A stretch of DNA of 64,000 nucleotides from a virus (IMGVR_UViG_3300045107_000413:1-64000); one strand, 5' to 3'. Positions 140-22,918 are shown, counted from the first letter of the stretch. Notes: generated by a model not told the origin, from the sequence alone. Program-made: numbers and translations.

Positions 140-694
140 ATGAAATGTCTTTCCATTCAGCAACCGTTTGCATGGTTGATTGTCAACGGCTATAAAGACA
201 TCGAGAACCGCAACTGGTCAACGGATGTTCGCGGCTGTATCCTCATCCATGCAGGTAAGCAGGCAGATATATCTTTCTTTGATAAGGATGGCTTGCTCTA
301 CTTGCCTTATGCAGAGCATATCTGTAGCGAGGCCATAGCCTCCCTCATGCCAGAGCGACTGGCAGACTACGAACGGGGCGGTATCGTCGGCTATGCCACG
401 CTACAGAAGGTGGTCAGCCAGTCAGAGAGTCCCTGGTTTCGTGGCAAATACGGCTTTGTGCTGACGCAGCGCCGCCCCGTTCCCTTCATGCCCTTGCGCG
501 GGCAACTCGGTTTCTTCGATGCGCCCACGGAGATTGAAGAGGAGATCACCCGTATCCGGGATGAACGCGGCTGGTCAGCGGATATGGCTGACCTCACACA
601 AATCAAGCAGGAGTGGCGGGAGTACCGCTTAGCGGGCAACGCGCCGCCGCCCACACCGCCCTCGGAAATATGGAGCAATGACTATGACGACTGA
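140..694 (+). CDS. ASCH domain protein
   Basis: N-terminal LSIQQPFAWLIVNGYKDIENRNW matches the ASCH GxKxxExR motif; also GCILIHAG and GGIVG. Confidence 0.9.
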   Translation: MKCLSIQQPFAWLIVNGYKDIENRNWSTDVRGCILIHAGKQADISFFDKDGLLYLPYAEHICSEAIASLMPERLADYERGGIVGYATLQKVVSQSESPWFRGKYGFVLTQRRPVPFMPLRGQLGFFDAPTEIEEEITRIRDERGWSADMADLTQIKQEWREYRLAGNAPPPTPPSEIWSNDYDD

Positions 695-4275: not shown

Positions 4276-4304
4276 TTGCACTTGAGTGAACAATGTGATA
4301 CTAT
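4276..4304 (+). promoter_or_regulatory. sigma-70-type promoter
   Basis: TTGCAC-17-TACTAT upstream of the HTH gene. Confidence 0.55.
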
Positions 4305-4339
4305 TACAGCGTACCTCTTACAAGAGAAGGGAGGCTACA

Positions 4340-4537
4340 ATGTTGGTTATGGAAAAGCCATACTACACCGTAGAGGAGGTAGCAAAGGAACTGCAAATCC
4401 ATCCGGTGACAGTGCAACGCTACATCAGGAGCGGGGAACTGACTGCCTACAAAATCGGCAAGATATACCGTATCCATGCCGAAGACTTGCGGCGGTTCAT
4501 GGAAGGACGCAGAACCGACAGAGAGAAGGAAAGCTGA
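4340..4537 (+). CDS. excisionase-like/Cro-like HTH DNA-binding protein
   Basis: YYTVEEVAKELQIHPVTVQRYIRSGELTAYKIGKIYRI; GGAGG RBS. Confidence 0.9.
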   Translation: MLVMEKPYYTVEEVAKELQIHPVTVQRYIRSGELTAYKIGKIYRIHAEDLRRFMEGRRTDREKES

Positions 4538-6041: not shown

Positions 6042-6250
6042 TCGAACCACTTGCCCCAAAACGGCAAAGTCCTCTGCTAAACGGCAAGCTAGCAGAGGAC
6101 AGCCAAATTTACTGTTGTCGATGCACTTCCTAGTATACCACGAAACTAGGAAGTTGGAAAGGGGTATTCGTATGCAATTCACTACTGTAGCGCGTGTTTT
6201 TGCGCCTATTTTGATAGATGAAGCCGTGTGGAGGCGGTGGAGGTGGCATC

Positions 6251-8437: not shown

Positions 8438-8441
8438 CACA

Positions 8442-9815
8442 ATGGAAAAAGTGCTTCCACACAACATTGAGGCGGAGCAGGGCGTGCTTGGCAGCATCAT
8501 CCTTGACCCGGAGTCCGTCGCGCAGGTGATCGACTTTCTTGCGCCCACCGACTTCTACCGTGACGCCCACCGCACCATTTATGCCACGATCATGTATCTC
8601 TACAGCCAGCATGAACCCGCGGACTTCATCACGCTTTGCGATATGCTGGAACGCACCGGTTCACTGGAAAACGTGGGCGGGCCGTCCTACATCAGCAGTC
8701 TGCTTAATGAGGTGCCAACATCCGGCCATATTGCCCATTATGGTCATATCGTGGAGCGCACCAGCATCTTGCGCCAACTCATCCATGCCGCCGGGCAAAT
8801 TGCCGCCCTGGCCTATGAGCAGGGGGTTGAGGCACAGGACGCGCTGCGACGGGCAGAGGAGATCGTGTTTCGTGTCGGCAAACGGGCGCAACAGGCATCG
8901 TTTGCCCCCATGCAGCACATCATGGTTGAGTATGTGGAGCGCCTCTCAACCATTCATGAGGCGCTCAGGCAGCACAGGAGCGTCATCACGGGCGTACCAA
9001 CGGGCTACGGCGTCCTGGACAGCCTTACAGGCGGGTTGCAGCCAACTGACCTCATCATCCTTGCGGGCCGTCCTGGCATTGGCAAAACGGCGCTTGCGAC
9101 CTGTATTGCCTACCATGCCGCGCTCAAAGGTCGCAAGAAGTGCGCCGTCTTCAGTTTAGAGATGAGTCAGGGACAGTTAGGCGCTCGCCTGCTGGCAATG
9201 GTGACGGGCATCGATACGCAGCGCCAGCGCGCTGGCTGGATTGGAGAGGATGAGTGGGAGACCGTCATTGCTGCCTGTGGCAAGATTGGGCAACTCCCCA
9301 TCTGGGTCAATGACACAGCAGGCAATCCCATCCTCTCCATGCGCTCTCAGTTGCGCCGCCTCATTGCCGAGACAGGCGGCATTGATCTGGTGCTGGTGGA
9401 CTACCTGCAACTGGTGGAGCCGGAGGAGGGAGAAAGCCGGAAGCACTTTGAGAACCGCACGCAGGAAGTGGGCAAGATTGCGCGCGGCCTCAAGGCCCTG
9501 GCCCGTGAGTTCGAGGTTCCCGTGCTGGCCCTTGCCCAACTCTCCCGCGAGGTCGAACACCGCAAGCCACCGCGCCCCCTGCTCTCTGACCTGAAGGAAT
9601 CGGGAGATATCGAGGCGGCGGCAGATATGGTGCTATTGCTCTACCGCGAGGACTACTATGCCAGAATGGAGAAGCGGGAACACTACACCCCGACGAACCT
9701 GGCAGAACTTACTATTGCGAAGTACCGCAACGGCCCGGTCGGGGAAGTGGCTCTGTACTTTCAGGATGAGCGCACGATGTTCTACAACGTGGAGGACGTG
9801 ACCCATGTGGAATGA
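8442..9815 (+). CDS. dnaB: replicative DNA helicase
   Basis: PHNIEAEQGVLG, Walker A AGRPGIGKT, FSLEMS, VDYLQL, LAQLSR, DLKESGDIEAAAD, KYRNGP. Confidence 0.97.
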   Translation: MEKVLPHNIEAEQGVLGSIILDPESVAQVIDFLAPTDFYRDAHRTIYATIMYLYSQHEPADFITLCDMLERTGSLENVGGPSYISSLLNEVPTSGHIAHYGHIVERTSILRQLIHAAGQIAALAYEQGVEAQDALRRAEEIVFRVGKRAQQASFAPMQHIMVEYVERLSTIHEALRQHRSVITGVPTGYGVLDSLTGGLQPTDLIILAGRPGIGKTALATCIAYHAALKGRKKCAVFSLEMSQGQLGARLLAMVTGIDTQRQRAGWIGEDEWETVIAACGKIGQLPIWVNDTAGNPILSMRSQLRRLIAETGGIDLVLVDYLQLVEPEEGESRKHFENRTQEVGKIARGLKALAREFEVPVLALAQLSREVEHRKPPRPLLSDLKESGDIEAAADMVLLLYREDYYARMEKREHYTPTNLAELTIAKYRNGPVGEVALYFQDERTMFYNVEDVTHVE

Positions 9816-10023
9816 GCAGGCGGCCATGCAATGGGCGCGCAGGTGGCACTACCCGCAACTCTGCCTTGCCCGCGGCGTTCGCATCTATGCCGGGGAGCAG
9901 GCATGGAGACACTTCCTGCGGGAAGCAACCGATGAGGCGCTGGACGCTATTCACCGCAGGGTCGTGCGCTGGAACGCCCGCGCCAGTGGGTACATGCCGG
10001 TATTGGCAGGAGAACATCCATGA
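9805..10023 (+). CDS. hypothetical protein
   Basis: Overlaps the DnaB stop; WHYPQL motif resembles HGYPAL in the next ORF. Confidence 0.5.
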   Translation: MWNEQAAMQWARRWHYPQLCLARGVRIYAGEQAWRHFLREATDEALDAIHRRVVRWNARASGYMPVLAGEHP

Positions 10024-10391
10024 AGAAAGGCTATCTCAGCAAAACAACCTGTGCCAGCCACTATTGCCCGACCATGCAGGCGCTCCTGGATAGGGCAACG
10101 AGCAAAGCGGCAACGGTAGAGGAACTGGCGTCTATCCGCATCGCCATCAACAAGGATGATATGTGCTGTGATGCTACCGGTACGTACTGGTGCCATGCCT
10201 GTGCCGCACGCTGCGCCCTCATGAACTACGGCGCCTCGCACGGCTATCCTGCCCTCAGTTTCCCGCCCTACGCCGTCGGGGCGGGGCAAACACTCTGGCG
10301 CACGCTGGCAGGGTTAGGTATGCCAGCGTGCATTGAGGCATGGATGAGAGCATTGGGGTTAGACGGGCAGGAAGAGGAGGGAGCAGCGTGA
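10020..10391 (+). CDS. hypothetical Cys-rich protein
   Basis: ATGA-coupled with GGAG RBS. Confidence 0.55.
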   Translation: MKKGYLSKTTCASHYCPTMQALLDRATSKAATVEELASIRIAINKDDMCCDATGTYWCHACAARCALMNYGASHGYPALSFPPYAVGAGQTLWRTLAGLGMPACIEAWMRALGLDGQEEEGAA

Positions 10392-10512
10392 ACGAGCAGA
10401 CTGAGGCAATTCTCTTCTATTGCGGTGTGTGTGAAGGACAGTGGAACCGGGGCGCATGGGGTCACGGTTCGTATGTGTGCATCGGAAATGCAAAGGAGAA
10501 TGAGAGAGGGTT

Positions 10513-10872
10513 ATGGGCATCTATCTGATTGGGACATTGAGCATGTTTCTTGTGTTGGTATTACTTTTCTCGACAGGTATTGCGATTCTCATCAGGAAAG
10601 CCATGTCCTATAAGCAGATGATTGACTATGCACTTGAGCAGACGCATCAGCTCAAGGCAGTCAAGTGGACACGAGGGAGGCAGCTTCCAGGGGAGTTTAC
10701 CCTGCTTCAGGCAGACACAGCCGTCTACTTGCAGTCAGTCACAGTATTCTCGAAAGGGCAAGAGCAGCTATCAAGTGGTTCAGGTATTCTATTCCCAACG
10801 AGACAATTCAAGGGAATACCTCATAGAAACTGCCCATACCATCTGTCAAGAAGTGTCATAAGAGAGAAGTGA
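10513..10872 (+). CDS. small membrane-anchored protein
   Basis: N-terminal hydrophobic helix; lower GC like the adjacent GT2 gene. Confidence 0.55.
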   Translation: MGIYLIGTLSMFLVLVLLFSTGIAILIRKAMSYKQMIDYALEQTHQLKAVKWTRGRQLPGEFTLLQADTAVYLQSVTVFSKGQEQLSSGSGILFPTRQFKGIPHRNCPYHLSRSVIREK

Positions 10873-10876
10873 GAAC

Positions 10877-12235
10877 ATGAAGAAAATCATTCTGGTTGAT
10901 AGCATCCTCTACGCTGTAAGTATCTGGCTGCTGGTTGCTGCCTGGAATGCACCAAAGAATGAAGCGCATACCCTGCTCTCCATTGTCCTCGGTATCATTC
11001 TGACGGCGCTTTCTAGCCCTGTTATGGTCAAGGCGTTCCTGTTTCTCATTCTAGCACCCTGGCATGAAATCGTAGTTGCAAAACGCAAGCGAACGGCGGC
11101 GCATATGCTTCAGTATACCCCGTTCGTCTCTGTCATTATTCCCGCCTGGAATGAGGAAGTAGGCATTGTTGCAACGCTCAAGACACTGCTTGCGAGTTCC
11201 TACCGGAAGATGGAAATTATTGTTGTGAATGATGGCTCAACAGATAATTCTGATCAGGTAATTCGTACCTTTCTTGCGAAATATGCACAGGCCACTCTTG
11301 GGGCAAGTGACGTGATCTCAATTGCTTACCTCTACAAGCAGAATGCAGGTAAAGCGGCGGCACTCAATACTGGCATTGGGGCATCTCATGGAGAGGTCAT
11401 TGTCTGTATCGATGCTGATTGCCTGCTGACGAAAGACACTATTCTCCACTTTGTACTGGCAATGCAGGATGAGAGCATAGCAGCGGTATGTGGAAACATC
11501 AAAGTAGGCAATAGAACTACCTTGCTTGCTCAGATTCAGATGGTTGAGTACGCGCTCTCTTTCTACTCACGGCAGACTGATGCGCTTCTCAATACTCTCT
11601 ACGTGGTTTCAGGGGCAGGAGGCGCGTACCGCCGTGAGATATTTGACCGAGTTGGGTTCTATAACACTAATTTACGAGGAGGAGGTGAAGACGTTGACCT
11701 GAGCATACGTATTCAACAGGCGGGGATGCGTATTACCTTTGCCCCACGAGCCGTTGTCTACACTGAGGTTCCCGAAACACTACGGGGACTCCTCAAACAG
11801 CGCAAACGTTGGACGCGCAGTCGTTTCGATACCTTCCGGCGTTATCCCCACTTTCTCTTGAGTAGGAGACGTGAACACAATAAGCTGCTCACCTGTTTTG
11901 TGCTTCCCCTCATTGCCTTCAATGACTGGTTCTATCTGCTCAAGATGGTACTCAAACTCATGCTTTATGGCTATTGCCTGCTTATCCACCAGTATGAACT
12001 CCTGGCAATGCCACTACTGATTACAATGGTGATGAGCGGTATCCCCCTACTTATGAACAAAGAATATCGTCCATATCTCTTCCTTGCGCCCATCTACTGG
12101 CTTCTGGGATTTATTCCTGCCTTCATCGAAGCTTATGCTATCGGTGCTGCTTTGTGGGGAATACTGCACCGCCAAGAAGTGCAATGGCAACAATGGCAAC
12201 GACAGGGAGCCACCCGGCAGGTCAAGAGGAAGTGA
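10877..12235 (+). CDS. processive family 2 glycosyltransferase (PgaC/IcaA-like)
   Basis: VSVIIPAWNEE, NDGSTD, GKAAALN, DAD, GEDVDL, QRKRW; N- and C-terminal TM helices. Confidence 0.93.
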   Translation: MKKIILVDSILYAVSIWLLVAAWNAPKNEAHTLLSIVLGIILTALSSPVMVKAFLFLILAPWHEIVVAKRKRTAAHMLQYTPFVSVIIPAWNEEVGIVATLKTLLASSYRKMEIIVVNDGSTDNSDQVIRTFLAKYAQATLGASDVISIAYLYKQNAGKAAALNTGIGASHGEVIVCIDADCLLTKDTILHFVLAMQDESIAAVCGNIKVGNRTTLLAQIQMVEYALSFYSRQTDALLNTLYVVSGAGGAYRREIFDRVGFYNTNLRGGGEDVDLSIRIQQAGMRITFAPRAVVYTEVPETLRGLLKQRKRWTRSRFDTFRRYPHFLLSRRREHNKLLTCFVLPLIAFNDWFYLLKMVLKLMLYGYCLLIHQYELLAMPLLITMVMSGIPLLMNKEYRPYLFLAPIYWLLGFIPAFIEAYAIGAALWGILHRQEVQWQQWQRQGATRQVKRK

Positions 12236-12259
12236 GAATGCAAACAGAAAGGGAAAAAT

Positions 12260-12545
12260 CATGATGGATGCACACCCCATCACTACCAGGGCAGACTACC
12301 CTGTGAACATACAGGGCAAGATCATCTACTGGATAGTACCGGAGCAAGAGCATAGCAGTGATGCCCCCTGGTGCGAGCATGACGGGACGTGCGCCTGCCA
12401 CCCCTGGCAAGCCTGCGCCTGCCGCTTCGACCACGCCTACATGGAGCAGCAGTTTGTGCGCCCTATTGTGGCAGGGGAGCAGACCATCGGGGAGATGCTT
12501 GCACGCTACCGGTGCAAAGAGCAGGTACTATCAAAAAGGAAGTAG
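12260..12545 (+). CDS. hypothetical protein (start approximate)
   Basis: ATG after a purine-rich RBS; Cys/His cluster. Confidence 0.4.
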
Positions 12546-12575
12546 CATACAAAAGAAAAGAGAAGGAGAGAAGCG

Positions 12576-13161
12576 ATGACGACTTTGACACAGCGCGAGA
12601 GGCACCATGACCTCAGTGTGGCACAGACCCGCAGCCTGCGTGAGCGCAACGGCGTGCCGGAAGGCTACTTTACGACAGGAGGAGCGGCCACCTACCTGGA
12701 ATGCAGGATGGATGCCATCTGGACGGCCATCAAGACGGGCAAGTTGACAGGAGAGCGGTTCGGGCGCCTGACCTGCTTCACGAAAGAGGAACTGGACGCC
12801 TTTGATGCTCGCAGGCGGGGGACGCCTGTTCTGGATACGGCGGTTGATACCCCCCCCCGTGCAGACAGTCGAAGCCCCTGAAATGGCACAAGAACTACCG
12901 CAAGACGGACAAGCGCAGGAACAGGCAGTACCCCCTGCACAGGAACAGGCAGTACCCCGCTCGGAAGTGCAGACGCGCTACTCATGGAGTGATGTGCAGG
13001 CAATGGCACTTGTCGGCAAGACAAAGAAGATTGCGCTCTCCGGCGGCGGGCTGCTCTATCTCTGCTATGACGCCGACCTGTTCACGCTGACGGAGCAAGA
13101 ACGCAGCCTGCTCTTTGCCCTCATTGACGCCATCAAGCAGTTTGAGGGAGAGCAGGAGTAG
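12576..13161 (+). CDS. HTH DNA-binding protein apparently split by a frameshift in a C9 tract (ORFs 12576-12881 and 12802-13161)
   Basis: FTTGGAATYLECRMDAIWTAIKTGKL HTH; removing one C at 12850-12858 fuses both ORFs. Confidence 0.6.
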
Positions 13162-13207
13162 CATGCAGGTGGGGATGATGGAAGGGTGAGAGCAGTTTAA
13201 CAAGCAC

Positions 13208-13235
13208 GTGCTGGCTACAGAGACGTAGCCAGCAC
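13208..13235. terminator. hairpin between convergent genes
   Basis: GTGCTGGCTAC...GTAGCCAGCAC inverted repeat. Confidence 0.65.
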
Positions 13236-13245
13236 CGACCATACA

Positions 13246-14001
13246 TCATTTCCAGTGGGGGATAGCAAACTCGTAGCGGCGTTTGAAAAATGAGCCGCGC
13301 AGGGACATATCCGAGAAGAGGACAAATGTCCCATCCTGGCCGTAGCAGGCGCGTTGCAGCACGAGGATGGGTTCGTTGCTTACCATCTGCATCTGCTCCT
13401 GCTCATAGAGGTTGGCGTGGCGGCTACTCACCTCCTCAACGGCGCGCACGGGAGAGCGTCCCTTTGCCGCCAATGCACGGGAGACACTGAAGTCGGGGTC
13501 AGTCTTCATCGCTGGGAGAAATTCCTCTACCAGGGCGTAGGGCCAATAGGTGTCCCACGTGCAGAGGTAGAGCTTGTTTGCCATACTGAAGCGCGCACGG
13601 CAGAGCATGCGCACATGCCCGTCAAGCCCGAATGCTGCGCATACCTCCTCTGGCAGGTAGAGCGGCTCTTGTATCCCCCTGATGGTTGCCATGCCCGTGG
13701 TGACAGGGATACCGAGCGCGCGCGCGTCTGTTGTCCAGTCCTTGTACATCCCCTCAATGGCAATGACGGGGTTCTGGGCAATGCGCCCGGCTTTGAGGTC
13801 TGCCACCTGCTCCTCTTTGTACCAGGGACGCCGCCTGCCGTCAAAGAAGTAGCGCGTGAGCGAGAGGATACTTTTCTCATAGAAGTGGTCATGTGAGACG
13901 CCAAGCAGGCGCGCTGCTGGTTCTGCCGTAATGTATTTCACCCCGCCCTCGACCCGTTCTGTCGGTCGCGGGCGTAGTTTCCTGCCTTTTTGTCCGGTCA
14001 T
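13246..14001 (-). CDS. transcriptional regulator, N-terminal HTH plus C-terminal UTRA domain
   Basis: AEPAARLLGVS HTH; EEVSSRHAN...EPILVLQRACYGQDG...RYEF is UTRA-like. Confidence 0.8.
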   Translation of the reverse strand: MTGQKGRKLRPRPTERVEGGVKYITAEPAARLLGVSHDHFYEKSILSLTRYFFDGRRRPWYKEEQVADLKAGRIAQNPVIAIEGMYKDWTTDARALGIPVTTGMATIRGIQEPLYLPEEVCAAFGLDGHVRMLCRARFSMANKLYLCTWDTYWPYALVEEFLPAMKTDPDFSVSRALAAKGRSPVRAVEEVSSRHANLYEQEQMQMVSNEPILVLQRACYGQDGTFVLFSDMSLRGSFFKRRYEFAIPHWK

Positions 14002-14158
14002 GGTTGCTCCTTTGCATGATAGTTTCTGAGAAAAGCATACCTGAAAATCAACAAAATGTCAAACGAAAGTGGAACAACACCACTTGACAAAAGAAAGAAG
14101 GTCAGGTACTCTTAATGCTATATGGCTGTTTGCTGAGTTCAGAGAAGGAGAGAAGGAG

Positions 14159-14665
14159 ATGGCAGCAGCAGGGGCGGGTACCGCGCACAAGAGCGCGCCC
14201 ATCATCTACATTGTCTTTGGAGTGCTGATTTTAGTGCTGTCCCTCGGTTTCACCATCTTTCAGATTGAAACCAATGAGGCATTCGTGTTAGGGCGGCAGG
14301 CAGGCGGCTACGTGGCTATGCTGGATGTCCTCAAGCAAATCCCAGAGTTCTTCGGCGGTGGCCTCTCTGCGGCAGGGGCGGTGGCCTTTGAAGTGGGTTA
14401 CGGCGTTGAGGCCATTTTTATCATGCTGGTCATGCTCTATGAAGCGGCCCATGATGGGGTGATGCACATGAGTCCGAAGCTTGCCCCCCTCTTTCGCTTC
14501 GGCATGTACGTGGTGGCAGGCTACGATTTCTGGACGGACGTGCATTTCAATGTCCTCAGCAGCATTGCCGCGCAAATCGGCTTTGCGATTGTCGCCTTTC
14601 TCATGGTGGCCTTTGGCCCGACGGCGGGAGTCGCCTCGATTGTCAAGGGTATCAAGGAGTGGTAA
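14159..14665 (+). CDS. multi-pass membrane protein
   Basis: Several hydrophobic helices; AAGGAG RBS. Confidence 0.7.
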   Translation: MAAAGAGTAHKSAPIIYIVFGVLILVLSLGFTIFQIETNEAFVLGRQAGGYVAMLDVLKQIPEFFGGGLSAAGAVAFEVGYGVEAIFIMLVMLYEAAHDGVMHMSPKLAPLFRFGMYVVAGYDFWTDVHFNVLSSIAAQIGFAIVAFLMVAFGPTAGVASIVKGIKEW

Positions 14666-14667
14666 GC

Positions 14668-14754
14668 ATGTTCGCATTCATCGTGCTTTGCCTGTGTATC
14701 GGGGCCATCTTCTTCAATATTGCCCTTGCCTGGATGCGACGGCATGGCCTGTAA
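14668..14754 (+). CDS. small single-TM peptide
   Basis: AAGGAG RBS; MFAFIVLCLCIGAIFFNIALAWMRRHGL. Confidence 0.5.
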   Translation: MFAFIVLCLCIGAIFFNIALAWMRRHGL

Positions 14755-14769
14755 GAAAGGAGAGCGGCA

Positions 14770-16380
14770 ATGGCAGACAACCAGCAACTCGTACCGCAGG
14801 AGCAGCAGGAGCAACCTGCCCAGACGCCGTTCGACCTGGGACGCTCAACGAAGTTAGGTGTCGTGACCTTGCTGGTTTCCCTGACTCTTGACTTCCTGCT
14901 CAATGGCTCCTTCACCAACCTGGGCGGGCAAACGGGCCTCTGGCTCGCAGGCATTGCCACTATCGCGGCCTTTCTTGAGGCTAATCCCATCATAGAGCAA
15001 GTGCAGGATTTGGCTCCGATGCGCGCTCTGGCACGCCGCAAACGCGAGGTTCCGAAAGGGCAACTTCCCCACTGGAAACGGGCGCTAGGCCTGCGGGAAG
15101 AAGAGTCCCTTCCGGTTGATGATGAGATTGATGGGGATGATGCATTGACTCTTGATGAGGAAGAGGATGAAGAGGAGGAGAGCGCATGGAATGCAGCGCC
15201 CTCACTTTCGCCTTTGCCTATCCCTGCTGCGCGTGAAAGTAGCAATCATTCGCAGTTCGTGATCGTTCGTGCGAGCGACCCCCGCCGGGAAATCCTGCTT
15301 GGCCCACAGTTCGGCCTGGACATTGATGCAGTCATTGATGCAGGCGTTTTCATCTCTGGCATGAAAGGCTCCGGCAAGTCCACCGTTGCCGCCCGCCTCA
15401 TGGAGCAGGTAGGGCGCTTCGGGGCCATCCCGCAGGTGATCTTTGATGTCAGGGGAGATTTCACCTCCCTGGTAGACTCCCACTTTGCACGCGGGGTCAT
15501 TTCGACACATGGGAGGCTTTACCGCCCGGAGGAAATCCTGACGCAGCGCCTGCAAGTTGTGGTAGATTTGCGCCCCTTCACAGCTGAGCAGCGCGGCCAG
15601 ATCATTGCGCGCATGTGCCATAACCTGCTCAAGCTTGCCATGAGCCTGCCGCCAGAGGCGCGCTTCCCCTGGTTCGTGCATGTGGATGAGGCGCAGCAGT
15701 ACGCCGCACAGGCGCGCCCGGAAAGCCTGGAGGTGCGCACCTGGCGTGCGGTCTGCCAGGCCCTGAGCAACCTGGGCGTGCTTGGCCGTGCCTACGGGGC
15801 AGTTCCCTGCCTCTACACGCAGCGCATCGCTGACATCAACAAAAGCGTCATCAGCCAGCAGGAGTTGCGCATCTTCCTCAAAGCGACCTTGCACAGCGAC
15901 CTTGCCCGCTACCGTGACTACATCAACCCTGATGTGGCAACGGATGAGACGATCCGCGCACTTGGCGCAGGGGAGGGTGTGGTCTGCCTGCCGGACGGGC
16001 GGCAATTCCTCGCGCGCTTCCTCAACCGGGAGTCCGCGCATGGCTCCCATACTCCGCACTTGGAGGAAGCCCTGCGTTTCCCCGTCGTTTCCCCGTCGTT
16101 TCCCTGTTCATTTCCCATTTCCAACTCACCTATTAATGGAAATGAGCGGGAAATGGCTCTAGAGGCCGATAGAGAAGACTTTGAAGCATATGGAAATGAG
16201 GCGGGGAAATCTCATTCTGAGGGTGAAATGACGGTTTCGGACGAGGTAAAGGAAATGATAAGGCGCATGGTGAAGAGGGGATTTCGACATGGGGAAATCG
16301 CTTCAATCGTTGGGCTTGCGGGTCGCAAATATGGCATCTACAAGCAGGTTTGTCGTGAGTTAGATATTGAAGTTTCTTGA
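14770..16380 (+). CDS. membrane-anchored HerA/FtsK-superfamily ATPase with C-terminal HTH
   Basis: Two N-terminal TM helices, Walker A GMKGSGKS, FDVRGDF, Walker B VHVDEAQ, GRAYG, TQR; C-terminal RHGEIASIVGL. Confidence 0.85.
   Translation: MADNQQLVPQEQQEQPAQTPFDLGRSTKLGVVTLLVSLTLDFLLNGSFTNLGGQTGLWLAGIATIAAFLEANPIIEQVQDLAPMRALARRKREVPKGQLPHWKRALGLREEESLPVDDEIDGDDALTLDEEEDEEEESAWNAAPSLSPLPIPAARESSNHSQFVIVRASDPRREILLGPQFGLDIDAVIDAGVFISGMKGSGKSTVAARLMEQVGRFGAIPQVIFDVRGDFTSLVDSHFARGVISTHGRLYRPEEILTQRLQVVVDLRPFTAEQRGQIIARMCHNLLKLAMSLPPEARFPWFVHVDEAQQYAAQARPESLEVRTWRAVCQALSNLGVLGRAYGAVPCLYTQRIADINKSVISQQELRIFLKATLHSDLARYRDYINPDVATDETIRALGAGEGVVCLPDGRQFLARFLNRESAHGSHTPHLEEALRFPVVSPSFPCSFPISNSPINGNEREMALEADREDFEAYGNEAGKSHSEGEMTVSDEVKEMIRRMVKRGFRHGEIASIVGLAGRKYGIYKQVCRELDIEVS
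16075..16300. repeat. clustered short GGAAAT/ATTTCC-like repeats in two opposing orientations
   Basis: CGTTTCCC x3 and CATTTCC x2, followed by repeated GGAAATG/GAAATG/GGAAATC. Confidence 0.6.
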
Positions 16381-16428
16381 CAAGTGGTTACAAAAAAAAA
16401 GAGACACAAGAGAAGGAGAAACACTCGT

Positions 16429-17343
16429 ATGGCAACACAGGTGGAAGAGGCGGCAGGACAATCAACAACACAGGAGAAATGGCAAGCCTTTGTTTCGCTT
16501 GACTGGTATGATGGCGTCATCAGCTTCCTTTTTAGATTCGTGGCGAAAACGAGCGAACCATTGCTGGCAGCGGGCGTCATTGTGAGCGCCGCTGACTTTC
16601 TGCTCAAAGGGGAACTGATGGCAGATAGTCCCTTGCTTGCCGGTATCTGGGCATGGACACAGGCCGTTGCCATTGAGGCATCTACCGGCCCTGTACTGGT
16701 GTTCGCTCTTCAGGCATTCAAAGCCCGCGACCCGATCAAGGGCTGGCTCTATACCGTGCTGGCCGTTCTACTGTTCATTGTGGGCAGTGCCATGCTGTTC
16801 TTACAGATGATTGCGAACGTCACGGGCGTCACGGAAGCGAACGTGAGCCTCATCGTGATTTACGGATTGTTCGTTTTGCGTGTGATTGTGTCCTCTGGCA
16901 TGGTGGCCCTCTCCTGTACCAAGCATATCCCTTTCAGTGGCATGCTCTCCGCACGAATGGAAGCGACCGTTGAGACACCTGTGACTGTCTCAACACCTTC
17001 TACAGAAGAAATTGTTACACAGGTGCTTGCACACATTGATACACTCTATCAGACACGCCTTGAGACAGTCATGGAGCGCACGATAGAGCGTGTGACTGTC
17101 TCAGTGGAGGAACAGGTGCTTGCACAGTTACCTGAACGTATCACTTCCTCTATGCAAGCAATTGCACTACCTCTACAGGGAACGTATGAGACACCTGTTG
17201 AGACAGGGGAGAGTGTAGAAAATCGTATCAGGGCAATACTCATCCAGACGCCTGACATCTCAATACGCAAGTTGGCAACACAGGCACACTGCGCTCCCAA
17301 TACTGCCTCAAAATGGAAAGAGCGTATCCAGGCGGGGAGTTAA
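16429..17343 (+). CDS. 4-TM membrane protein with C-terminal HTH (Spd-like)
   Basis: Four hydrophobic helices, linker, then PDISIRKLATQAHCAPNTASKW; internal TGAGACA/TGTCTCA repeats. Confidence 0.7.
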   Translation: MATQVEEAAGQSTTQEKWQAFVSLDWYDGVISFLFRFVAKTSEPLLAAGVIVSAADFLLKGELMADSPLLAGIWAWTQAVAIEASTGPVLVFALQAFKARDPIKGWLYTVLAVLLFIVGSAMLFLQMIANVTGVTEANVSLIVIYGLFVLRVIVSSGMVALSCTKHIPFSGMLSARMEATVETPVTVSTPSTEEIVTQVLAHIDTLYQTRLETVMERTIERVTVSVEEQVLAQLPERITSSMQAIALPLQGTYETPVETGESVENRIRAILIQTPDISIRKLATQAHCAPNTASKWKERIQAGS

Positions 17344-17657
17344 TAAAGAAGGGTAGACAGTGCTGTGATAGTTTCAGAAAGCATAGCGATTTCTCGCTTG
17401 AGCTTCCTGTTTACTCGCAGTGTTCACACGGAAGAACTGCTCTCTTCCCTACACTTGTGTTCACGGCGCGATGGGCGAACTACAACGCCCTCTACATGCT
17501 CGGTGGCAAGCCATGTTGCATGCTACGTGTATTCGTGCCTGTTGCTCGCTCTGGTGTCACCTGCTTGCCGCGCTATAGTGTCTCTGTTTTACAAGAGCAT
17601 AGGCTATACTACCAGAAGCGAACAGCACAGAAAGAAGAAAAGCAATAGGAGGAAGCA

Positions 17658-18104
17658 ATGACAGAACAGCACCTGAAGGCTATGCTCGCACGGCGGGGCT
17701 ACACGCCTCATATCGGCATGACGGCCATGCAGCAAGGACACCGGCACATCAATGCCCCTGCCCTCTGTATCGTGCAAGACGGGCAAGAGGTCGTTGTTGC
17801 CGCCCTCGATGAAGTGCTGTCTGCTGATACGGCAACCATTGCCGCCCTCCTTGACCGGCGACTCGGAGCAGGCATGCATCATGTACAGTGCGCGCAGTGC
17901 GGGCATACCCTTTTGCAAGGCGTGGGTGGCACAGGCAAAGGTGAGGGCGCAACGCACTGGTATGAGTACCGTGACGCGAGCCGAGGCCCACAGTCAGCAG
18001 AGATTCTCTTTTGCCCGCGCTGTGGGGCGGCGTTATTTGAAGAGAATATTCAGGAGGTGGAGGATGAGAAGAGGACAGGAGAGCATGATGCCACCATTTC
18101 ATAG
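17658..18104 (+). CDS. hypothetical zinc-ribbon protein
   Basis: CAQC...CPRC; GGAGG RBS. Confidence 0.6.
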   Translation: MTEQHLKAMLARRGYTPHIGMTAMQQGHRHINAPALCIVQDGQEVVVAALDEVLSADTATIAALLDRRLGAGMHHVQCAQCGHTLLQGVGGTGKGEGATHWYEYRDASRGPQSAEILFCPRCGAALFEENIQEVEDEKRTGEHDATIS

Positions 18105-18301
18105 TGATGCTGATACCGTAGGCGGGTCATGGAGCAGTTACCAGACGCTGGCTTTTCGAGAGCGTTGTGCCTGTTGCGGGAAGAAAACATTTCTCGGCTG
18201 GTGGATGGTCAATGAGGAACGCACGCGCTTCAGAGATGGAACAGAAGCCGTGCATTGAGAACTGTTCTGTCGTCCTGCGTGTGAGCGGAAGGGAAGCGGG
18301 A

Positions 18302-18622
18302 ATGAGCAAAATGGGTCTGTACCGGCTCTATGAAGACGTATCCGAAAAGGCGTTTCAGCAACAGGTGATACAGGTGGCACGCCTGACGGGGCATCTTGCC
18401 TATCACACGCTGCATAGTATCGGCAGCGAGCCAGGTTTTCCTGATCTGGTGCTTGTGCATCCGTTGCGTCCCTCATTGCTGATGCCTGAACTCAAGAGTG
18501 AGCGGGGAAGACTCACCAGAGCGCAGGAACGTTGGCTTGCTGCCTTGCGCGCGAATGGGGTGGAAGCGCCCGTATGGCGTCCCCATGATATTGATGAGAT
18601 ATTGGAAAGGCTCAAACGCTAA
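18302..18622 (+). CDS. VRR-NUC nuclease
   Basis: SEKAFQQQV, GFPDLVLV, ELKSERGRLTRAQERW, VWRP. Confidence 0.92.
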   Translation: MSKMGLYRLYEDVSEKAFQQQVIQVARLTGHLAYHTLHSIGSEPGFPDLVLVHPLRPSLLMPELKSERGRLTRAQERWLAALRANGVEAPVWRPHDIDEILERLKR

Positions 18623-19834
18623 TGCACTACCCGCCAGAACTGCCTGCGCTCAATGTTACATGGGAGCATGAGCAGGCGACAACCATCATCCACCGCTACT
18701 GCCGCGCGGGCCTCACCCTCGGCCTCTCGCGTATTGCAACGCTCTTACGCGCGGCACCTATTGCCGCAGAAGAGTGCGATGAACTCCTCTCCTGCCTTGC
18801 CCACGCGCGCCATCATGCAGAGCGGGATATGTGCCGCTATCAGGCAGACATAGTAGGGAGGCTGCAATGAGGAAGCAAGATGACCTTTGCGACCCGTATC
18901 ACCTGAGCCGCCTGGATGAGTACCTGCTCGTGCGTGATTTTTGATGATGAGGATGGAGGAAATCCATCCAGGAGGTGAGGGATGCAACGAACACGAACAT
19001 ACCCCTTCTGGCTGCGCTGGTTACACGCCCGTTTCTGTGAGTGGCTAGAGCAGTACGAGCAGGCCCGCGCCTGGTCAGCGCGCCATTGCCCCTGCTGCGG
19101 CACGCCCGTCTCCTCACATGACGCCCGCTACTGCGCCATGTGCGGGCAGTGCCTGCTGGTGGAGGCGCGGGTGACGGACAGCCTGCCAATAGCGCGCCTG
19201 CACAGTGGGGAGTTGCTGCGCGCCTATCGGGACAGGGAAGGCCATCGGGCGGGCGTCTCTACCACCGAACACCGCGCCTATGTGCGCACGCCGGAGAACC
19301 ACCAATGAAGGAGAAACCGATGCCTACAACGCCCTTGCTCTACCCTGCTGCCGTCATCGCGGCCTTTGTCTATCTGCTGCTGGTGTGCCGCCTTGTCGTC
19401 ATCGTGCGGGAGTCCCTTGCTGTGCTGCGTGCCAGTAAACAGCATCACCCCGTTTGCTGGCTTGCCCCCGATGACGCACTCTGGTTAGACGCCGTGTTCA
19501 GTGATGCCTATGAGGAGTTGACCGAGTGCGACGACTAGGGATACGGACACTGTTCCGTTTGCTGGCACGGACGCGGCAGGCACCGCCCGTTGCGCCCCTG
19601 GTGCTGCGACGCCGTGAGAAGGGGCTGTCATGGGAGGAGTACGTGGCCTTGCAGCGCGTTTCCCTGGCTGCTGATGTGCAACTCTTTGACGGCTCGCTCT
19701 CCTTGGAGGAATATGTGCGCATGAGTCACCAGACACAGCATGTTACCCGTGTGTTGTACCATCATTTAGGGGCAAGTACGCTCCCCGAATATCTGCTCGA
19801 TGCCCCTACTGAGAAAGTCGAGACACTATGCTAA
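18622..19834 (+). CDS. four small hypothetical ORFs (18622-18870, 18982-19308 zinc ribbon, 19305-19538 TM, 19526-19834)
   Basis: Coupled small ORFs leading into the cas locus; CPCC...CAMC in 18982-19308. Confidence 0.5.
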
Positions 19835-21429
19835 CCACCACCAATCCCTATCAGCAACTCATTACGTCCTATACCACAGCACATGGCTACACCGACAGCG
19901 CGCCCCGCTACCAGCCCTGCCGCGTGACCCTCACCCTGTTGCAGCCCTATGCCGGCTATGACCTCCCGCACCTGGACGGCCTGCTCTCCTCCGTCGTCGT
20001 CACGCAAGCCTTGCAGGGGGCGCGCCTCCCAAAGGACAATACCCTCTATACCATTCCGCTCCCGCTTGAAGTTCTCTGGCGCGACAGCGCAGGCACGCCG
20101 CTCTTCCATGCGAGCAGCCTCTTTCCCGACCCACGCCACAGCAAGCATGTCTTCTCCTGGACAAAGAAAAATGACGAGGTGGCCTCCCGCTTTGCCGAAC
20201 GCAAACGCGACGGCGCGCTCTGGCAGCCCGATAGCGGAAGCGGCCAGTTCAAAGAGTACCGCATGCCCCTTCCCATCACGGCATCGGCCCACTTCACCGG
20301 CTACGCCTACGGGGACACAGAGGAGATAGCGCGCCTCTTGTCACTCCTGCATACGACCGGCAAGAAGGGCGCGTGGGGCTTCGGGCGCATTGCCCGCGTT
20401 GAGGTGGAACCCTGCGGCAAGCCGGGGCGCTACGTCTTTGTGCAGGGCGGGCGACTCCTGCGCCCCGTACCTGCTGCCGCTCTACCTGTGCTTGGACTGG
20501 TAGCAGAGGGAACACCTGTCCTCATCGGCTACTCCCCGCCCTACTGGTTGCCTGCCAAACAGGCGCAGTGCTACCCCGAAGGTACAGCAGTCCGGGAAGC
20601 GGTCAGTGCCGCAAAGCCCGTTGTGATGCCGCGCTGGTCAGTCCCGTCCTTCCTACTGTACTGCCAGCAGCAGGACGCCCTGCGCCGTCACGGTGATCTC
20701 ATCCTGCTCCATGACAAATTCCAACGCGGCAAGGGGGAAGGGGCCTTATGCGCGCTCACAGGACTGCCCATTACTGACGGCGGGGCGGTTGCCGCACGGG
20801 ATGCGCTCTCATCCAATATGGGCAATGTGGTCGATTTCTGCAAGGCCCCGCAGAGTCCCTGGGTAAGCAACGCGGCAGCGATCATCCTCTCACAGCCCAA
20901 GTCGATGCACCGCAACCTGGTGGCGCTGCTCTCGCCGCAAGGAGAGGGACACCTGCTCTGGCCCACCATCGCATTGGATCCAAAGCAGCCCGAGGCTGTG
21001 CGACCACTGTGGCGGGAGGTGCTACTGGTGCTGCACGAGCGGTATATGGGCTATCAGTGCGTGGTGATCTACAAGGATGAGCCGAAGTCACGAACGTGGC
21101 CACGCGCCAGGATCGGCGTGGTGGGCGCTTCTATGCCCATCCATTTTTCGGATAGCACGTTCGGTATCTCGAATCTGCTCGTCGTCGATATCGAGACAGT
21201 CGTCGAGCAGATGTCCTTTATCGAGTCGCTACTCGATGGGGGCTATGGCAAGACCCAGATACGGCTTGGTCTGCGTGCGCCTTCGATCGAGAGGCTAGCA
21301 CGCACATTGCAAGCAGAAAAGCGCCTGGCCGCGATGCGCATAACGGCTGAATTTCCCCTGGCATGGAGCGCGGCCAGGACGACCGAAGATCGAACGTTAC
21401 GAAAAGGAGTACAACCCGATGTCGACTAG
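19828..21429 (+). CDS. csf3-csf1: type IV Cas fusion: Csf3 (Cas5-family RAMP) N-terminal, Csf1 (Cas8-like) C-terminal
   Basis: Csf3 motifs HLDGLL, IPLPL, GQFKEYRMP, GDTEEIARLL, GKKGAWGFG, RPVP, PPYW; C-terminal CALTG...DFCKAPQSPWVS resembles a degenerate Csf1 Zn-finger region. Confidence 0.8.
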   Translation: MLTTTNPYQQLITSYTTAHGYTDSAPRYQPCRVTLTLLQPYAGYDLPHLDGLLSSVVVTQALQGARLPKDNTLYTIPLPLEVLWRDSAGTPLFHASSLFPDPRHSKHVFSWTKKNDEVASRFAERKRDGALWQPDSGSGQFKEYRMPLPITASAHFTGYAYGDTEEIARLLSLLHTTGKKGAWGFGRIARVEVEPCGKPGRYVFVQGGRLLRPVPAAALPVLGLVAEGTPVLIGYSPPYWLPAKQAQCYPEGTAVREAVSAAKPVVMPRWSVPSFLLYCQQQDALRRHGDLILLHDKFQRGKGEGALCALTGLPITDGGAVAARDALSSNMGNVVDFCKAPQSPWVSNAAAIILSQPKSMHRNLVALLSPQGEGHLLWPTIALDPKQPEAVRPLWREVLLVLHERYMGYQCVVIYKDEPKSRTWPRARIGVVGASMPIHFSDSTFGISNLLVVDIETVVEQMSFIESLLDGGYGKTQIRLGLRAPSIERLARTLQAEKRLAAMRITAEFPLAWSAARTTEDRTLRKGVQPDVD

Positions 21430-22918
21430 CGTAGTAGCGTTGTTATCCGCTCAGACCAGTATTGCCCATGGCGACCCGGGGGCCTCTGGCACGAGCAATG
21501 TGACCCCGTTTCGGATGCAGCAGGTTCTCTATCCCCGCGCCAATACACAGCCCCTTACTGATGACGTGGAGGCCATTGGTGAAGAGCCTGCCGCTCTGCG
21601 TATCCGTGCGATTCATGAAGCAGAGACAGCCATCCGTGAGCTGGCCCGCTCCTATCCGCTGCCCGCCGACAGCTACCTTGCCCTTGCCCTGCAAGGGCTC
21701 CAGGCAGAACAATTCATTGCCTCCGCCTTTGTCTATTCGCTTATCAGCCAGCTCAACAGCATGAATGGCGGGGATGGTGCAGGTCTCTTCTCCGGCATAG
21801 AACGCTATGATATGCTCTTGAAGCGCCTGGAGATCGTGGCGAACCAGTACCAGACCAGCATGTTCACGCTCTACGCGGCCCTTTTGCGCCAGCTGGGCAT
21901 CGAAGAGAGCCTGCCGAAGATGACGGATATCCTGTGGAGGTATGCCGCGCTGCCGCGAACGGTGCAGCAGTCCGTCATTGCCACGCTGGGCGCTGACCGG
22001 CAGGCGGTGGTGACGATTGCGCGGGCCTGGTTCGAGGATGAGCGGGCGCGCAGGCGCGGGCGCAAGGAGCAGGAAGAATGGGGGCTGTTTGAGGAGACTG
22101 ACTACTATGACCCCACCGGCAAGGTCGCTGGAACCTCGCTCACCTTTGCCGAGGCGGCGATCCCGTGGGTCTCCAGCAATACGTTCCGGCATACGGTCTT
22201 CCGCGAGACGCTCTGCAATCATCTGCTGGAGGCGCTCGAATTTGGCTCTCTTGCCGAGGTGGTCTCCCGCAAGGCGCTTCCTCACTACGTGATCCAGCTG
22301 CTGTCCAATGGCGGCAACGTCAAGGCCAATGCCAAAGCCCCCGATTACAGCAATGCCATTAATCTGGCGGTGATGGGCCTTTTCCCCTCACTGGAACTGC
22401 TCTCCGGGTGCCTACCCACCCACATGATGGGTGAGGGGGCGCTTTCGGTTGCCGACTGGACGCTGTGCCTGCAAAACAATGAGAATACTGCACCGCTGGG
22501 CTACATCTCCGATGTCGATGCGGCGAGCATGCTCACCATTGAGACGCACACACGCCATACGCCGCCGGGGATGGGCAACGATAAGGAAAGTGGGCAGATG
22601 CTTTTCAGCCATACCGTCATGAAGCCGGGGTGCCAGGTGCTCTTCGAGTTCAGCGTTGCGCCATTTGCCTCCCACCTCGCAAAAGGTGCTGCCTACTTTG
22701 CGTACCGCAGCTGGCTGGCGGCAGGAGGGCAGGTCGGTGGCCACGACAATATCGGGGAGGGGCGGTTCCGGCTGGTGGAGCAGCGAGGCGTCGAGGAGGA
22801 ACTGGAGCGCGCAGCCGTCGATTATCAGCGGTATGTGGATCAGCACCGCGATGCGTTGTACGAGGCGCTGGCGACCGGGACGATGGGCTGGAAGGAACGG
22901 TTGCCAGCGTGGGGGTAG
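21419..22918 (+). CDS. csf2: type IV Csf2 (Cas7) with internal Cas11-like helical insertion
   Basis: TSIAHG...TPFR, IPWVSSNTFRH, LLSNGG, FPSLELLSG, THTRH, QMLFSHTVMKPG, G-rich loop GGHDNIGEG; about 200-aa helical insert between FR and IPWVS. Confidence 0.85.
   Translation: MSTSVVALLSAQTSIAHGDPGASGTSNVTPFRMQQVLYPRANTQPLTDDVEAIGEEPAALRIRAIHEAETAIRELARSYPLPADSYLALALQGLQAEQFIASAFVYSLISQLNSMNGGDGAGLFSGIERYDMLLKRLEIVANQYQTSMFTLYAALLRQLGIEESLPKMTDILWRYAALPRTVQQSVIATLGADRQAVVTIARAWFEDERARRRGRKEQEEWGLFEETDYYDPTGKVAGTSLTFAEAAIPWVSSNTFRHTVFRETLCNHLLEALEFGSLAEVVSRKALPHYVIQLLSNGGNVKANAKAPDYSNAINLAVMGLFPSLELLSGCLPTHMMGEGALSVADWTLCLQNNENTAPLGYISDVDAASMLTIETHTRHTPPGMGNDKESGQMLFSHTVMKPGCQVLFEFSVAPFASHLAKGAAYFAYRSWLAAGGQVGGHDNIGEGRFRLVEQRGVEEELERAAVDYQRYVDQHRDALYEALATGTMGWKERLPAWG

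Follow-up and report, generated by a model that had tools for sequence, protein, structure and literature searches.

A conserved three-gene cassette encoding a HerA-clade ATPase and two membrane proteins in a tailed phage and in Ktedonobacteria, a possible apparatus for DNA spread

We describe a three-gene cassette in the genome of a tailed phage (record IMGVR_UViG_3300045107_000413), in which the gene for a HerA-clade ATPase stands between genes for two membrane proteins, at positions 14159-17343 of the 64,000-nucleotide stretch of DNA that was analysed (hereafter the window). The three genes recur together in phages and outside them, and they constitute a previously uncharacterised conserved cassette. 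In layout, including a divergently transcribed regulator gene, the region resembles the plasmid-transfer machinery of Streptomyces; in ancestry, as judged from sequence comparison, it does not. We propose, with a probability of roughly 0.35, that the three proteins make up a membrane-embedded pump for double-stranded DNA (dsDNA) that would serve the spread or transfer of the element independently of virions.

Results

Architecture of the three proteins

The central gene (14770-16380, plus strand) encodes a P-loop ATPase of 536 amino acids (aa), assigned to the HerA clade from its motifs, the DUF87 match, profile comparisons and an AlphaFold2 (AF2) model. It contains a Walker A (GMKGSGKST) and a Walker B (HVDEAQ) motif, within which G197, G202, K203, D306 and E307 show no variation among 70 relatives, and its motor core matches DNA translocases. 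In the AF2 model (mean pLDDT 67.7) two N-terminal helices connect through an acidic and disordered linker to a compact RecA-like core, from which a second disordered linker leads to a three-helix bundle. The core spans residues of about 160-430 (pLDDT 78-96 across 160-425), and the C-terminal bundle, which resembles a helix-turn-helix (HTH) domain, occupies residues 491-535 (pLDDT 57-76). This three-helix domain is conserved in the alignment of the close homologues (n = 16, all metagenomic), and one member of the family carries the JGI name DtxR-family regulator, a label that fits a winged HTH. The two N-terminal helices, at about 29-47 and 57-75, are hydrophobic, with a moderate hydropathy of 1.4-1.6, and form a predicted membrane anchor; in most full-length members of the family, too, a hydrophobic segment lies around residues 20-70 and Walker A around 150-210. 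Residues 1-160 consist of these two helices and disorder, without the HAS-barrel N-domain of HerA, and the helical insertion of HerA is a gap in the family when the two are aligned with hhalign. The ATPase is a stripped-down HerA-clade motor that has lost the N-terminal barrel and the helical insertion, and the domain order typical of FtsK/TraB (transmembrane (TM) segment, linker, motor, HTH) has arisen on a HerA scaffold.

The gene that follows, whose start lies 3-48 bp beyond the stop codon of the ATPase, is an open reading frame (ORF) of 319 aa (16384-17343, plus strand), the database gene call beginning at residue 16 (ATG 16429, 304 aa). In its AF2 model (pLDDT 75.9), residues 24-163 fold into four long helices, residues 192-231 form a coiled coil, and an HTH of three helices, modelled with a pLDDT of 90-96, occupies 263-303; because the N-terminus is basic, both termini and the HTH are probably cytoplasmic. 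The protein, which we call the 4-TM protein, has 107 homologues, two of whose source names are Ktedonosporobacter and Ktedonobacter metagenome-assembled genomes (MAGs), and its relatives give weak matches to HTH_23, HTH_24 and HTH_17, many of them with a Q-rich coiled coil. A fold search of the model against the PDB returned generic helical bundles only (best Z 10.7, under the caution level for helical proteins), and a search against BFVD gave no match at E <= 0.001.

Ahead of the ATPase gene lies that of a small polytopic membrane protein of 168 aa (14159-14665, plus strand), recognised from its hydropathy, its ribosome-binding site and its BLAST relatives. The ORF opens at GTG 14069 (198 aa to 14665), and we prefer ATG 14159 as the likely true start because a strong ribosome-binding site, GGAGAGAAGGAG, stands just ahead of it. 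Hydropathy indicates 3-4 hydrophobic segments, and an alignment of 12 sequences reveals a Q(I/V)QT(S/T)E motif after TM1 together with invariant P14, Q35 and D127. BLAST relatives of the protein lie directly upstream of the ATPase gene in six other loci (L005, L006, L010, L048, L049 and L050; loci are numbered with L throughout). No family in Pfam, PHROG, NCBIfam or PADLOC was matched, and a search of the Atlas yielded leads only (best 0.84; YWFCY and DUF6040 clusters at 0.82-0.83). A predicted complex between this protein and residues 1-110 of the ATPase (score 0.01, mark 0.32) counts neither way.

A first-pass annotation of the window had described a UTRA-domain regulator divergent from an operon of membrane proteins, a membrane-anchored HerA/FtsK ATPase with a C-terminal HTH and a 4-TM protein, also ending in an HTH, the whole being placed inside a tailed phage. 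This description agrees with the four genes now delimited at 13246-17343, with the predicted hydrophobic hairpin, DUF87 core and three-helix bundle of the ATPase, with the modelled helices and HTH of the 4-TM protein, and with the tape measure, TerL, portal and endolysin genes of the genome. The membrane proteins that it listed besides these two proved to be a single protein of 168 aa and not several.

Conservation and distribution of the cassette

The source record is a virus genome of 122,512 bp, with a CheckV completeness of 100%, of which the window is the first part. It is confirmed as a tailed phage, having a canonical terminase of its own as well as a portal and a tape measure: the tape measure protein is encoded at 53107-55776 on the minus strand (Pfam PhageMin_Tail, E 6.8e-35), and the large terminase subunit, TerL, beyond the window at genome positions 95474-96958, also on the minus strand (PHROG TerL, E 1.7e-31; Terminase_6N, E 6.5e-24), where the portal, head-protein-like genes and an endolysin are likewise encoded. 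Two tyrosine recombinase genes, at ~106.2 and ~121.2 kb of the genome, make it probable that the phage is temperate. Its hosts are probably Ktedonobacteria (Chloroflexota), bacteria of soils and hot springs that grow as filaments and have a mycelial morphology.

Gene context was compared in 8 metagenome loci, 12 genome loci and 4 further viral contigs, with four short loci (L008, L009, L010 and L012) known from BLAST alone. A protein with 3-5 TM segments follows the ATPase in 16 of the 20 loci that have downstream sequence, the exceptions (L014, L048, L051 and L052) being divergent or broken members of the ATPase family in which the N-terminal hydrophobic segment was not seen, and a small protein with 3-4 TM segments precedes it in 14 of the 21 loci that have upstream sequence. 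Since this arrangement recurs in many independent loci, it is not due to chance. The comparison of neighbourhoods, which the first-pass annotation had suggested as a check, thus found the three-gene cassette in viral, metagenome and Ktedonobacteria loci alike.

With the profile of the ATPase, 3848 cluster representatives are retrieved at E <= 0.001, of which 238 reach E <= 1e-30. Within the class Ktedonobacteria a strong match (E < 1e-45) is present in 16 of 121 sampled genomes, one of which (G067) is unpublished, the weak matches (E 1e-11 to 1e-15) in most of the other genomes being explained by canonical HerA; in a sample of the phylum, 6 of 301 genomes give a match at E <= 1e-40, each of these six being also in the class sample. 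A pattern scan of GTDB contigs, with one genome per species, had a Ktedonobacteraceae MAG as its sole match. When the alignment of close ATPase homologues was used to search for related loci, nothing was retrieved from genome contigs or viral contigs, and the alignment designated A3 retrieved nothing from viral contigs.

The cassette is not tied to virions and occurs in phage and non-phage contexts. Besides the record itself, its viral carriers are 4 contigs from IMG/VR, 18-67 kb in length, among which one has a Terminase_6N TerL. L059 and L060 are parts of a single viral contig of 64,952 bp, and because the cassette ATPase gene runs across both of its ends, this genome is circular or circularly permuted. 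Among five cassette-bearing bacterial genomes, TerL and portal of the present phage were found in none, nor were PhageMin_Tail, Terminase_6N, TerL_ATPase, Phage_capsid or Phage_portal; as these genomes are drafts, the virion genes are to be called not found and not absent. The recurrent families among 110 neighbouring proteins from seven loci are DUF5131, sigma-70, TnpB, C5 methylase, tyrosine recombinase and HTH_3, with a primase-PolA fusion, TGT and BrxL as single instances. In L044 the order is methylase, primase-PolA, small protein, cassette, ASCH protein and two recombinases, a gene content that has the make-up of an integrative element.

Several further observations concern the surroundings of the cassette. 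In the related viral contig L056 the ATPase and 4-TM genes are separated by an insertion (L056 12227-13027) that comprises a GIY-YIG/NUMOD3 homing-endonuclease gene and an ORF of 156 aa. The sigma-70 gene of the phage (1090-1989, plus strand) encodes a protein with ~41% identity to sigma factors beside the cassette in L042 and L047, both chromosomal; an ASCH-domain protein (140-694, plus strand) is common to the phage and L044; and an 83-aa ORF (4286-4537) has counterparts close to the cassette in L005 and L046. Insertion sequence (IS) elements crowd the chromosomal cassettes, as in L007 (1607-3253 and 6022-7638), where an ISL3 transposase lies directly upstream, and TnpB/IS605 genes adjoin the cassette in L007, L011, L042, L043 and L047.

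Placement of the ATPase in the HerA clade

The Pfam DUF87/HerA profile is passed narrowly (24.1 bits, cut-off 23.2), and the Pfam comparison gave no match between FtsK_SpoIIIE and the ATPase at E <= 0.1. When the family profile was compared with PDB sequences, HerA led (9c1m, E 2.2e-6; 8xau, E 1.3e-4; 8wiv, E 4.6e-4). Foldseek ranked HerA first, followed by B204 of STIV2 (TM-score 0.77, target-normalised) and TcpA, and VIA gave Z values of 27.9, 26.7 and 25.2 for HerA, 25.0 for DndH-C, 24.0 for VirB4, 22.4 for TdpA and 20.7 for TrwB, followed by EccC (18.7), B204 (18.6), FtsK (18.4) and TcpA (18.3). In hhalign the profile of 70 sequences scored 98.2% against canonical Ktedonobacterial HerA (E 3e-14, 263 columns) and 36.7% against pIJ101 Tra; the canonical HerA of these bacteria is a separate protein of ~580 aa (DUF87, E 4.7e-40). 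Judged from these profiles and models, the ATPase belongs to the HerA clade and stands further from FtsK/TraB. Searches by tblastn with the ATPase gave 3 weak matches among phages (24-26% identity, one annotated 'hera helicase') and, among plasmids, 21 alphaproteobacterial DUF87/ATP-binding proteins (24-30%), for two of which the context was inspected and proved uninformative.

By profile and by structure (VIA Z 25-28), the closest motor cores are thus those of HerA proteins acting in repair (HerA-NurA) and defence (SIR2-HerA, DUF4297-HerA). Unlike these, the cassette ATPase has a hydrophobic N-terminal hairpin and a C-terminal HTH in place of HAS-barrel and helical insertion, and its partners are membrane proteins and not a nuclease or Sir2: no nuclease, Sir2 or DUF4297 effector was found among the conserved neighbours, the VRR-NUC gene of the phage (18167-18622) being unlinked to the cassette in other loci.

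Membership of the HerA clade is nevertheless compatible with DNA transfer, because TdtA, CedB/CedD and VirB4 carry it out. TdtA of ICETh1, an integrative and conjugative element of Thermus, is needed for DNA donation and is hexameric and membrane-localised (PMC5365140); it is called HerA-like in a second source, where CedB/CedD are membrane-bound and act with the membrane proteins CedA/A1/A2, and where VirB4 is named as a further DNA-transfer motor of HerA-clade type (PMC11868833). With these systems, TdtA and CedB being compared by description only, the cassette would share a HerA/VirB4-clade motor that works at the membrane together with small or polytopic membrane proteins. It differs from VirB4 systems in having no VirB4-type N-domain, pilus gene or VirB6-like gene, and from TdtA in that the TdtA operon contains nucleases, none of which is linked to the phage cassette.

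The divergent UTRA-domain regulator

On the other side of a divergent intergenic region of 157 bp (14002-14158), which contains a promoter-like site and two imperfect inverted repeats, a UTRA-domain protein of 251 aa is encoded on the minus strand (13246-14001; Pfam UTRA, E 2.1e-11, 44.3 bits against a cut-off of 23.8, residues 117-239). It also matches phrog_10724, a family of unknown function (E 4e-10). No Pfam match to the GntR HTH was obtained at E <= 0.1, and the N-terminal ~110 aa were not recognised as one. Since the UTRA domain is matched without a GntR HTH, 'UTRA-domain regulator' is apt and 'GntR-family' is not borne out for this protein. The expectation of a GntR regulator of the Kor/TraR type therefore stands for the UTRA half and falls for the HTH, though the sister phage L056 has a true GntR+UTRA protein beside its cassette (GntR 30.9 bits, cut-off 27; UTRA E 1.5e-16), which shares 25% identity with the window protein across the UTRA domain (E 3e-15).

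The promoter-like sequence, TTGACA-17-TATGCT at 14062..14034 on the minus strand, is oriented toward the UTRA gene; such sites are not above chance, with 3 in 5.7 kb against 2.5 +/- 1.6 in shuffles. A jackhmmer search of all ORFs from 22 sources placed a UTRA gene beside the cassette in only two of the 21 loci, the window and L056, each of them viral. The link between regulator and cassette is real yet occasional, and so far is seen in phages only. We regard the UTRA protein as a putative ligand-responsive repressor of the divergent cassette.

Comparison with the transfer module of Streptomyces

In the pIJ101 record, korA (GntR) is divergent from tra-spdA-spdB-kilB. TraB is described as an FtsK-like translocase that reads 8-bp clt repeats, and SpdB2 as a pore-forming, DNA-binding 4-TM protein that oligomerises (PMC4447253). 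The likeness to pIJ101 and pSVH1 lies in a UTRA-type regulator divergent from an operon that encodes an anchored ATPase of the ring-translocase type and membrane proteins. TraB has an N-terminal membrane anchor, predicted also for the cassette ATPase, and a C-terminal DNA-recognition domain, of which the predicted three-helix bundle of that ATPase would be the counterpart; the two modules have in common small and 4-TM membrane proteins, hosts that are mycelial (probably so for the phage), and a process in which a relaxase is not involved. The 4-TM protein matches SpdB2 in topology only, by virtue of the four TM helices and the HTH in its AF2 model. Unlike TraB, the motor of the phage cassette is of the HerA and not the FtsK/SpoIIIE clade; unlike KorA/TraR, the regulator in the window lacks a GntR HTH; and the host phylum is Chloroflexota, not Actinomycetota.

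Common descent of the two modules was sought in several ways. The UTRA protein showed no significant BLASTP similarity to pIJ101 KorA, and pIJ101 SpdB had no match among phages. Against plasmids, a tblastn search with SpdB returned only close relatives of Streptomyces type. The uppermost rows of the BFVD search with the 4-TM model are not significant (phiC31 Gp25, E 0.02; a DUF2637 protein, E 0.15), and Atlas clusters with SpdB_N (0.80) and DUF2637 (0.79) are leads below the threshold.

The first-pass annotation had called the region a Streptomyces-style module and had named beforehand, as the points on which that view would turn, the grouping of the ATPase and the ties of the membrane genes to transfer modules. 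The ATPase groups with HerA of repair and defence and not with FtsK/TraB, and for the membrane proteins no significant similarity to Spd, DUF2637 or any other family of transfer proteins emerged. What survives is the resemblance to pIJ101 in layout and architecture, and what is essentially lost is homology, with a HerA-clade ATPase and no significant similarity to SpdB or KorA; the Streptomyces comparison holds as an analogy and does not extend to membership of the family. The spread of the phage genome without virions, which that annotation had inferred, is thereby a possibility and no more.

Discussion

A possible membrane-embedded DNA pump

Under the proposed mechanism, the ATPase would assemble into a ring, as its HerA, VirB4 and FtsK relatives do, and would be tethered by its two N-terminal hydrophobic helices at the inner face of the membrane, where its C-terminal HTH could pick out the element's own DNA. 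The 4-TM/coiled-coil/HTH protein and the small protein with 3-4 TM segments would then provide a conduit or an anchor in the membrane, through which the motor may drive the DNA of the element across the membrane or a septal cross-wall. By this route the element might pass into adjacent compartments of a hypha, into spores or into nearby cells with no virion involved, and in the present phage the divergent UTRA protein would repress the cassette until a ligand signal arrives, in a manner reminiscent of kil/kor systems. A pump in the service of the element fits the two HTH domains, the two dedicated membrane partners and the tight linkage of the genes, and it fits equally the carriage by phages and by elements apparently free of virion genes, the separate terminase and the probably mycelial host.

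A number of results weigh against such a pump. The N-terminus of the ATPase is only modestly hydrophobic, the protein is nearer to HerA than to any conjugative translocase, and FtsK, TraB, VirB4 and TrwB were not among the PDB profile matches at E <= 1. The alignment of the 4-TM family with pIJ101 SpdB by hhalign reached a probability of 0.2-0.3%, with a single sequence as template; a hidden Markov model of DUF2637 found nothing in the phage genome at E <= 10; and tblastn searches of 72,556 plasmids and 50,697 phages with the 4-TM protein were without a match. Neither a relaxase nor VirB4 nor a coupling protein occurs among the 25 most frequent of the 95 neighbour families. Repeats of clt type were sought near the cassette, and no exact cluster of 8-mers (at least 4 per 300 bp) or 9-mers (at least 3 per 400 bp) was found. 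The UTRA neighbour is present in 2 of 21 loci only, and the pumping role itself is read from genes and predicted models.

If the pump exists, it would amount to a second, independently evolved way of spreading dsDNA through a mycelium, located in another phylum and built on another branch of the HerA/FtsK superfamily, and a tailed phage that carries such an apparatus would blur the line between phages and conjugative elements. The broader suggestion, that mobile elements of Chloroflexota built a relaxase-free, UTRA-regulated spread of dsDNA around a HerA motor independently of actinomycetes, and that a temperate phage thereby spreads without virions, is one that we consider speculative and rather improbable. 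SpdB2 homologues carried by actinophages are already suggested to aid, possibly, the spread of phage DNA (PMC4447253), and this is the only suggestion of its kind in print that we have found. Literature searches for Ktedonobacteria with conjugation/TraB, or with phage/prophage/plasmid, yielded nothing relevant.

Alternative explanations

The proximity of the motor to HerA proteins of defence raises the question of whether the cassette protects its carrier. The ATPase and its partners may detect or expel foreign DNA, or trigger membrane damage, as a system of superinfection exclusion or of defence against phages and plasmids, an explanation that we hold unlikely while taking it seriously. The nearest relatives in structure and sequence include the HerA subunits of SIR2-HerA and DUF4297-HerA, PADLOC models of HerA (best E 1.4e-13) and of mad8 (E 3.8e-9, residues 189-408) match the ATPase, and the carriage on mobile elements and the patchy distribution (16/121 genomes) would suit such a role, as would the position of the cassette 2.5 kb upstream of type IV Cas5/Cas7-like genes, which belong to another system of competition between elements. 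However, the PADLOC HerA matches extend over no more than the Walker A region or the C-terminal half, and the HerA_antiphage model of NCBIfam reaches 23.8 bits against a cut-off of 800; the N-terminal barrel and the helical insertion are missing, no nuclease, Sir2 or other effector is linked, and neither of the conserved partners has a PADLOC match. C-terminal HTH domains on motor and partner alike are more in keeping with a cassette that recognises the DNA of its own element. The cassette may instead anchor or segregate the replicating DNA of the element, with the HTH-bearing membrane protein as a tether and the motor clearing or partitioning the copies across septa or into spores, without transfer between cells; this we judge to be rather unlikely as well. 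The p16.7 protein of phage phi29 is a DNA-tethering membrane protein with an HTH, and FtsK/SpoIIIE and SmeA-SffA clear or partition DNA across closing septa or into spores. The cassette lies inside the replication block of the phage, with iteron-like repeats, DnaB (8391-9815) and VRR-NUC, and it directly follows the primase-PolA gene in L044; the TM/coiled-coil/HTH architecture of the partner and the small membrane protein ahead of the motor gene would suit an anchor. The linkage to replication genes varies between loci, though, and at the level of sequence segregation does not separate from transfer.

A packaging function has very little to recommend it by comparison. The ATPase could be a relic, or a second enzyme for packaging or genome entry of the FtsK/HerA type known from membrane-containing viruses, and for this speak the match to phrog_2666, labelled 'terminase large subunit' (E 8.3e-12), the resemblance to STIV2 B204 in a compact motor core of similar size (the Foldseek and VIA values given above), and the gene order of membrane protein, ATPase and membrane protein, which recalls PRD1, where the packaging ATPase P9 works with the small membrane proteins P20 and P22. 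Yet B204 scores well under HerA (Z 18.6 versus 27.9), a C-terminal HTH and long linkers are to our knowledge not features of the packaging enzymes of membrane viruses, and the phage encodes a TerL of canonical Terminase_6N type along with portal and tape measure proteins; because of this separate TerL the ATPase is not the packaging motor. Returning to the proposed pump, we note that even if exclusion or segregation should prove to be the function, an uncharacterised three-gene family has been defined, with 238 ATPase representatives and 107 homologues of the 4-TM protein.

Other features of the phage genome

Upstream of the cassette, a repeat of ~22-32 nt with the core TCTACCCAAATGGGTATACC is present in 4 copies at 6738-6880, and the sole iteron-like cluster in the 122-kb genome is the one located here (6748-6887). 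It lies inside an ORF on the plus strand (6218-8437, 739 aa, just upstream of DnaB) that has no match in Pfam, PHROG, NCBIfam or PADLOC, and it is a candidate for a replication origin within an initiator gene. The early region also contains a gene for a family-2 membrane glycosyltransferase (10877-12235, plus strand, 452 aa, ~7 hydrophobic segments) with weak chitin-synthase-like matches.

Downstream, two adjoining genes on the plus strand (19828-22918) match effector subunits of type IV CRISPR-Cas systems, one Cas5/Csf3 (PADLOC E 1.2e-37; NCBIfam 47.3 bits, under the cut-off) and the other Cas7/Csf2 (PADLOC E 1.5e-19), their products of 533 and 499 aa far exceeding the usual length; a direct-repeat scan of the window found no CRISPR array. 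On the minus strand, an ORF of 1186 aa (38148-41708) combines many degenerate repeats of 45-nt period with a weak Viral/Archaeal nuclease domain, and beyond the window, at genome positions 73276-74487, the phage has a transposase/TnpB-like gene of its own. Short contigs with few or zero differences from positions 10000-20000 of the window occur at low depth in soil and mine metagenome runs, and near-identical contigs of the same region are also present in hot-spring and microbial-mat runs, which are possibly the source of the record.

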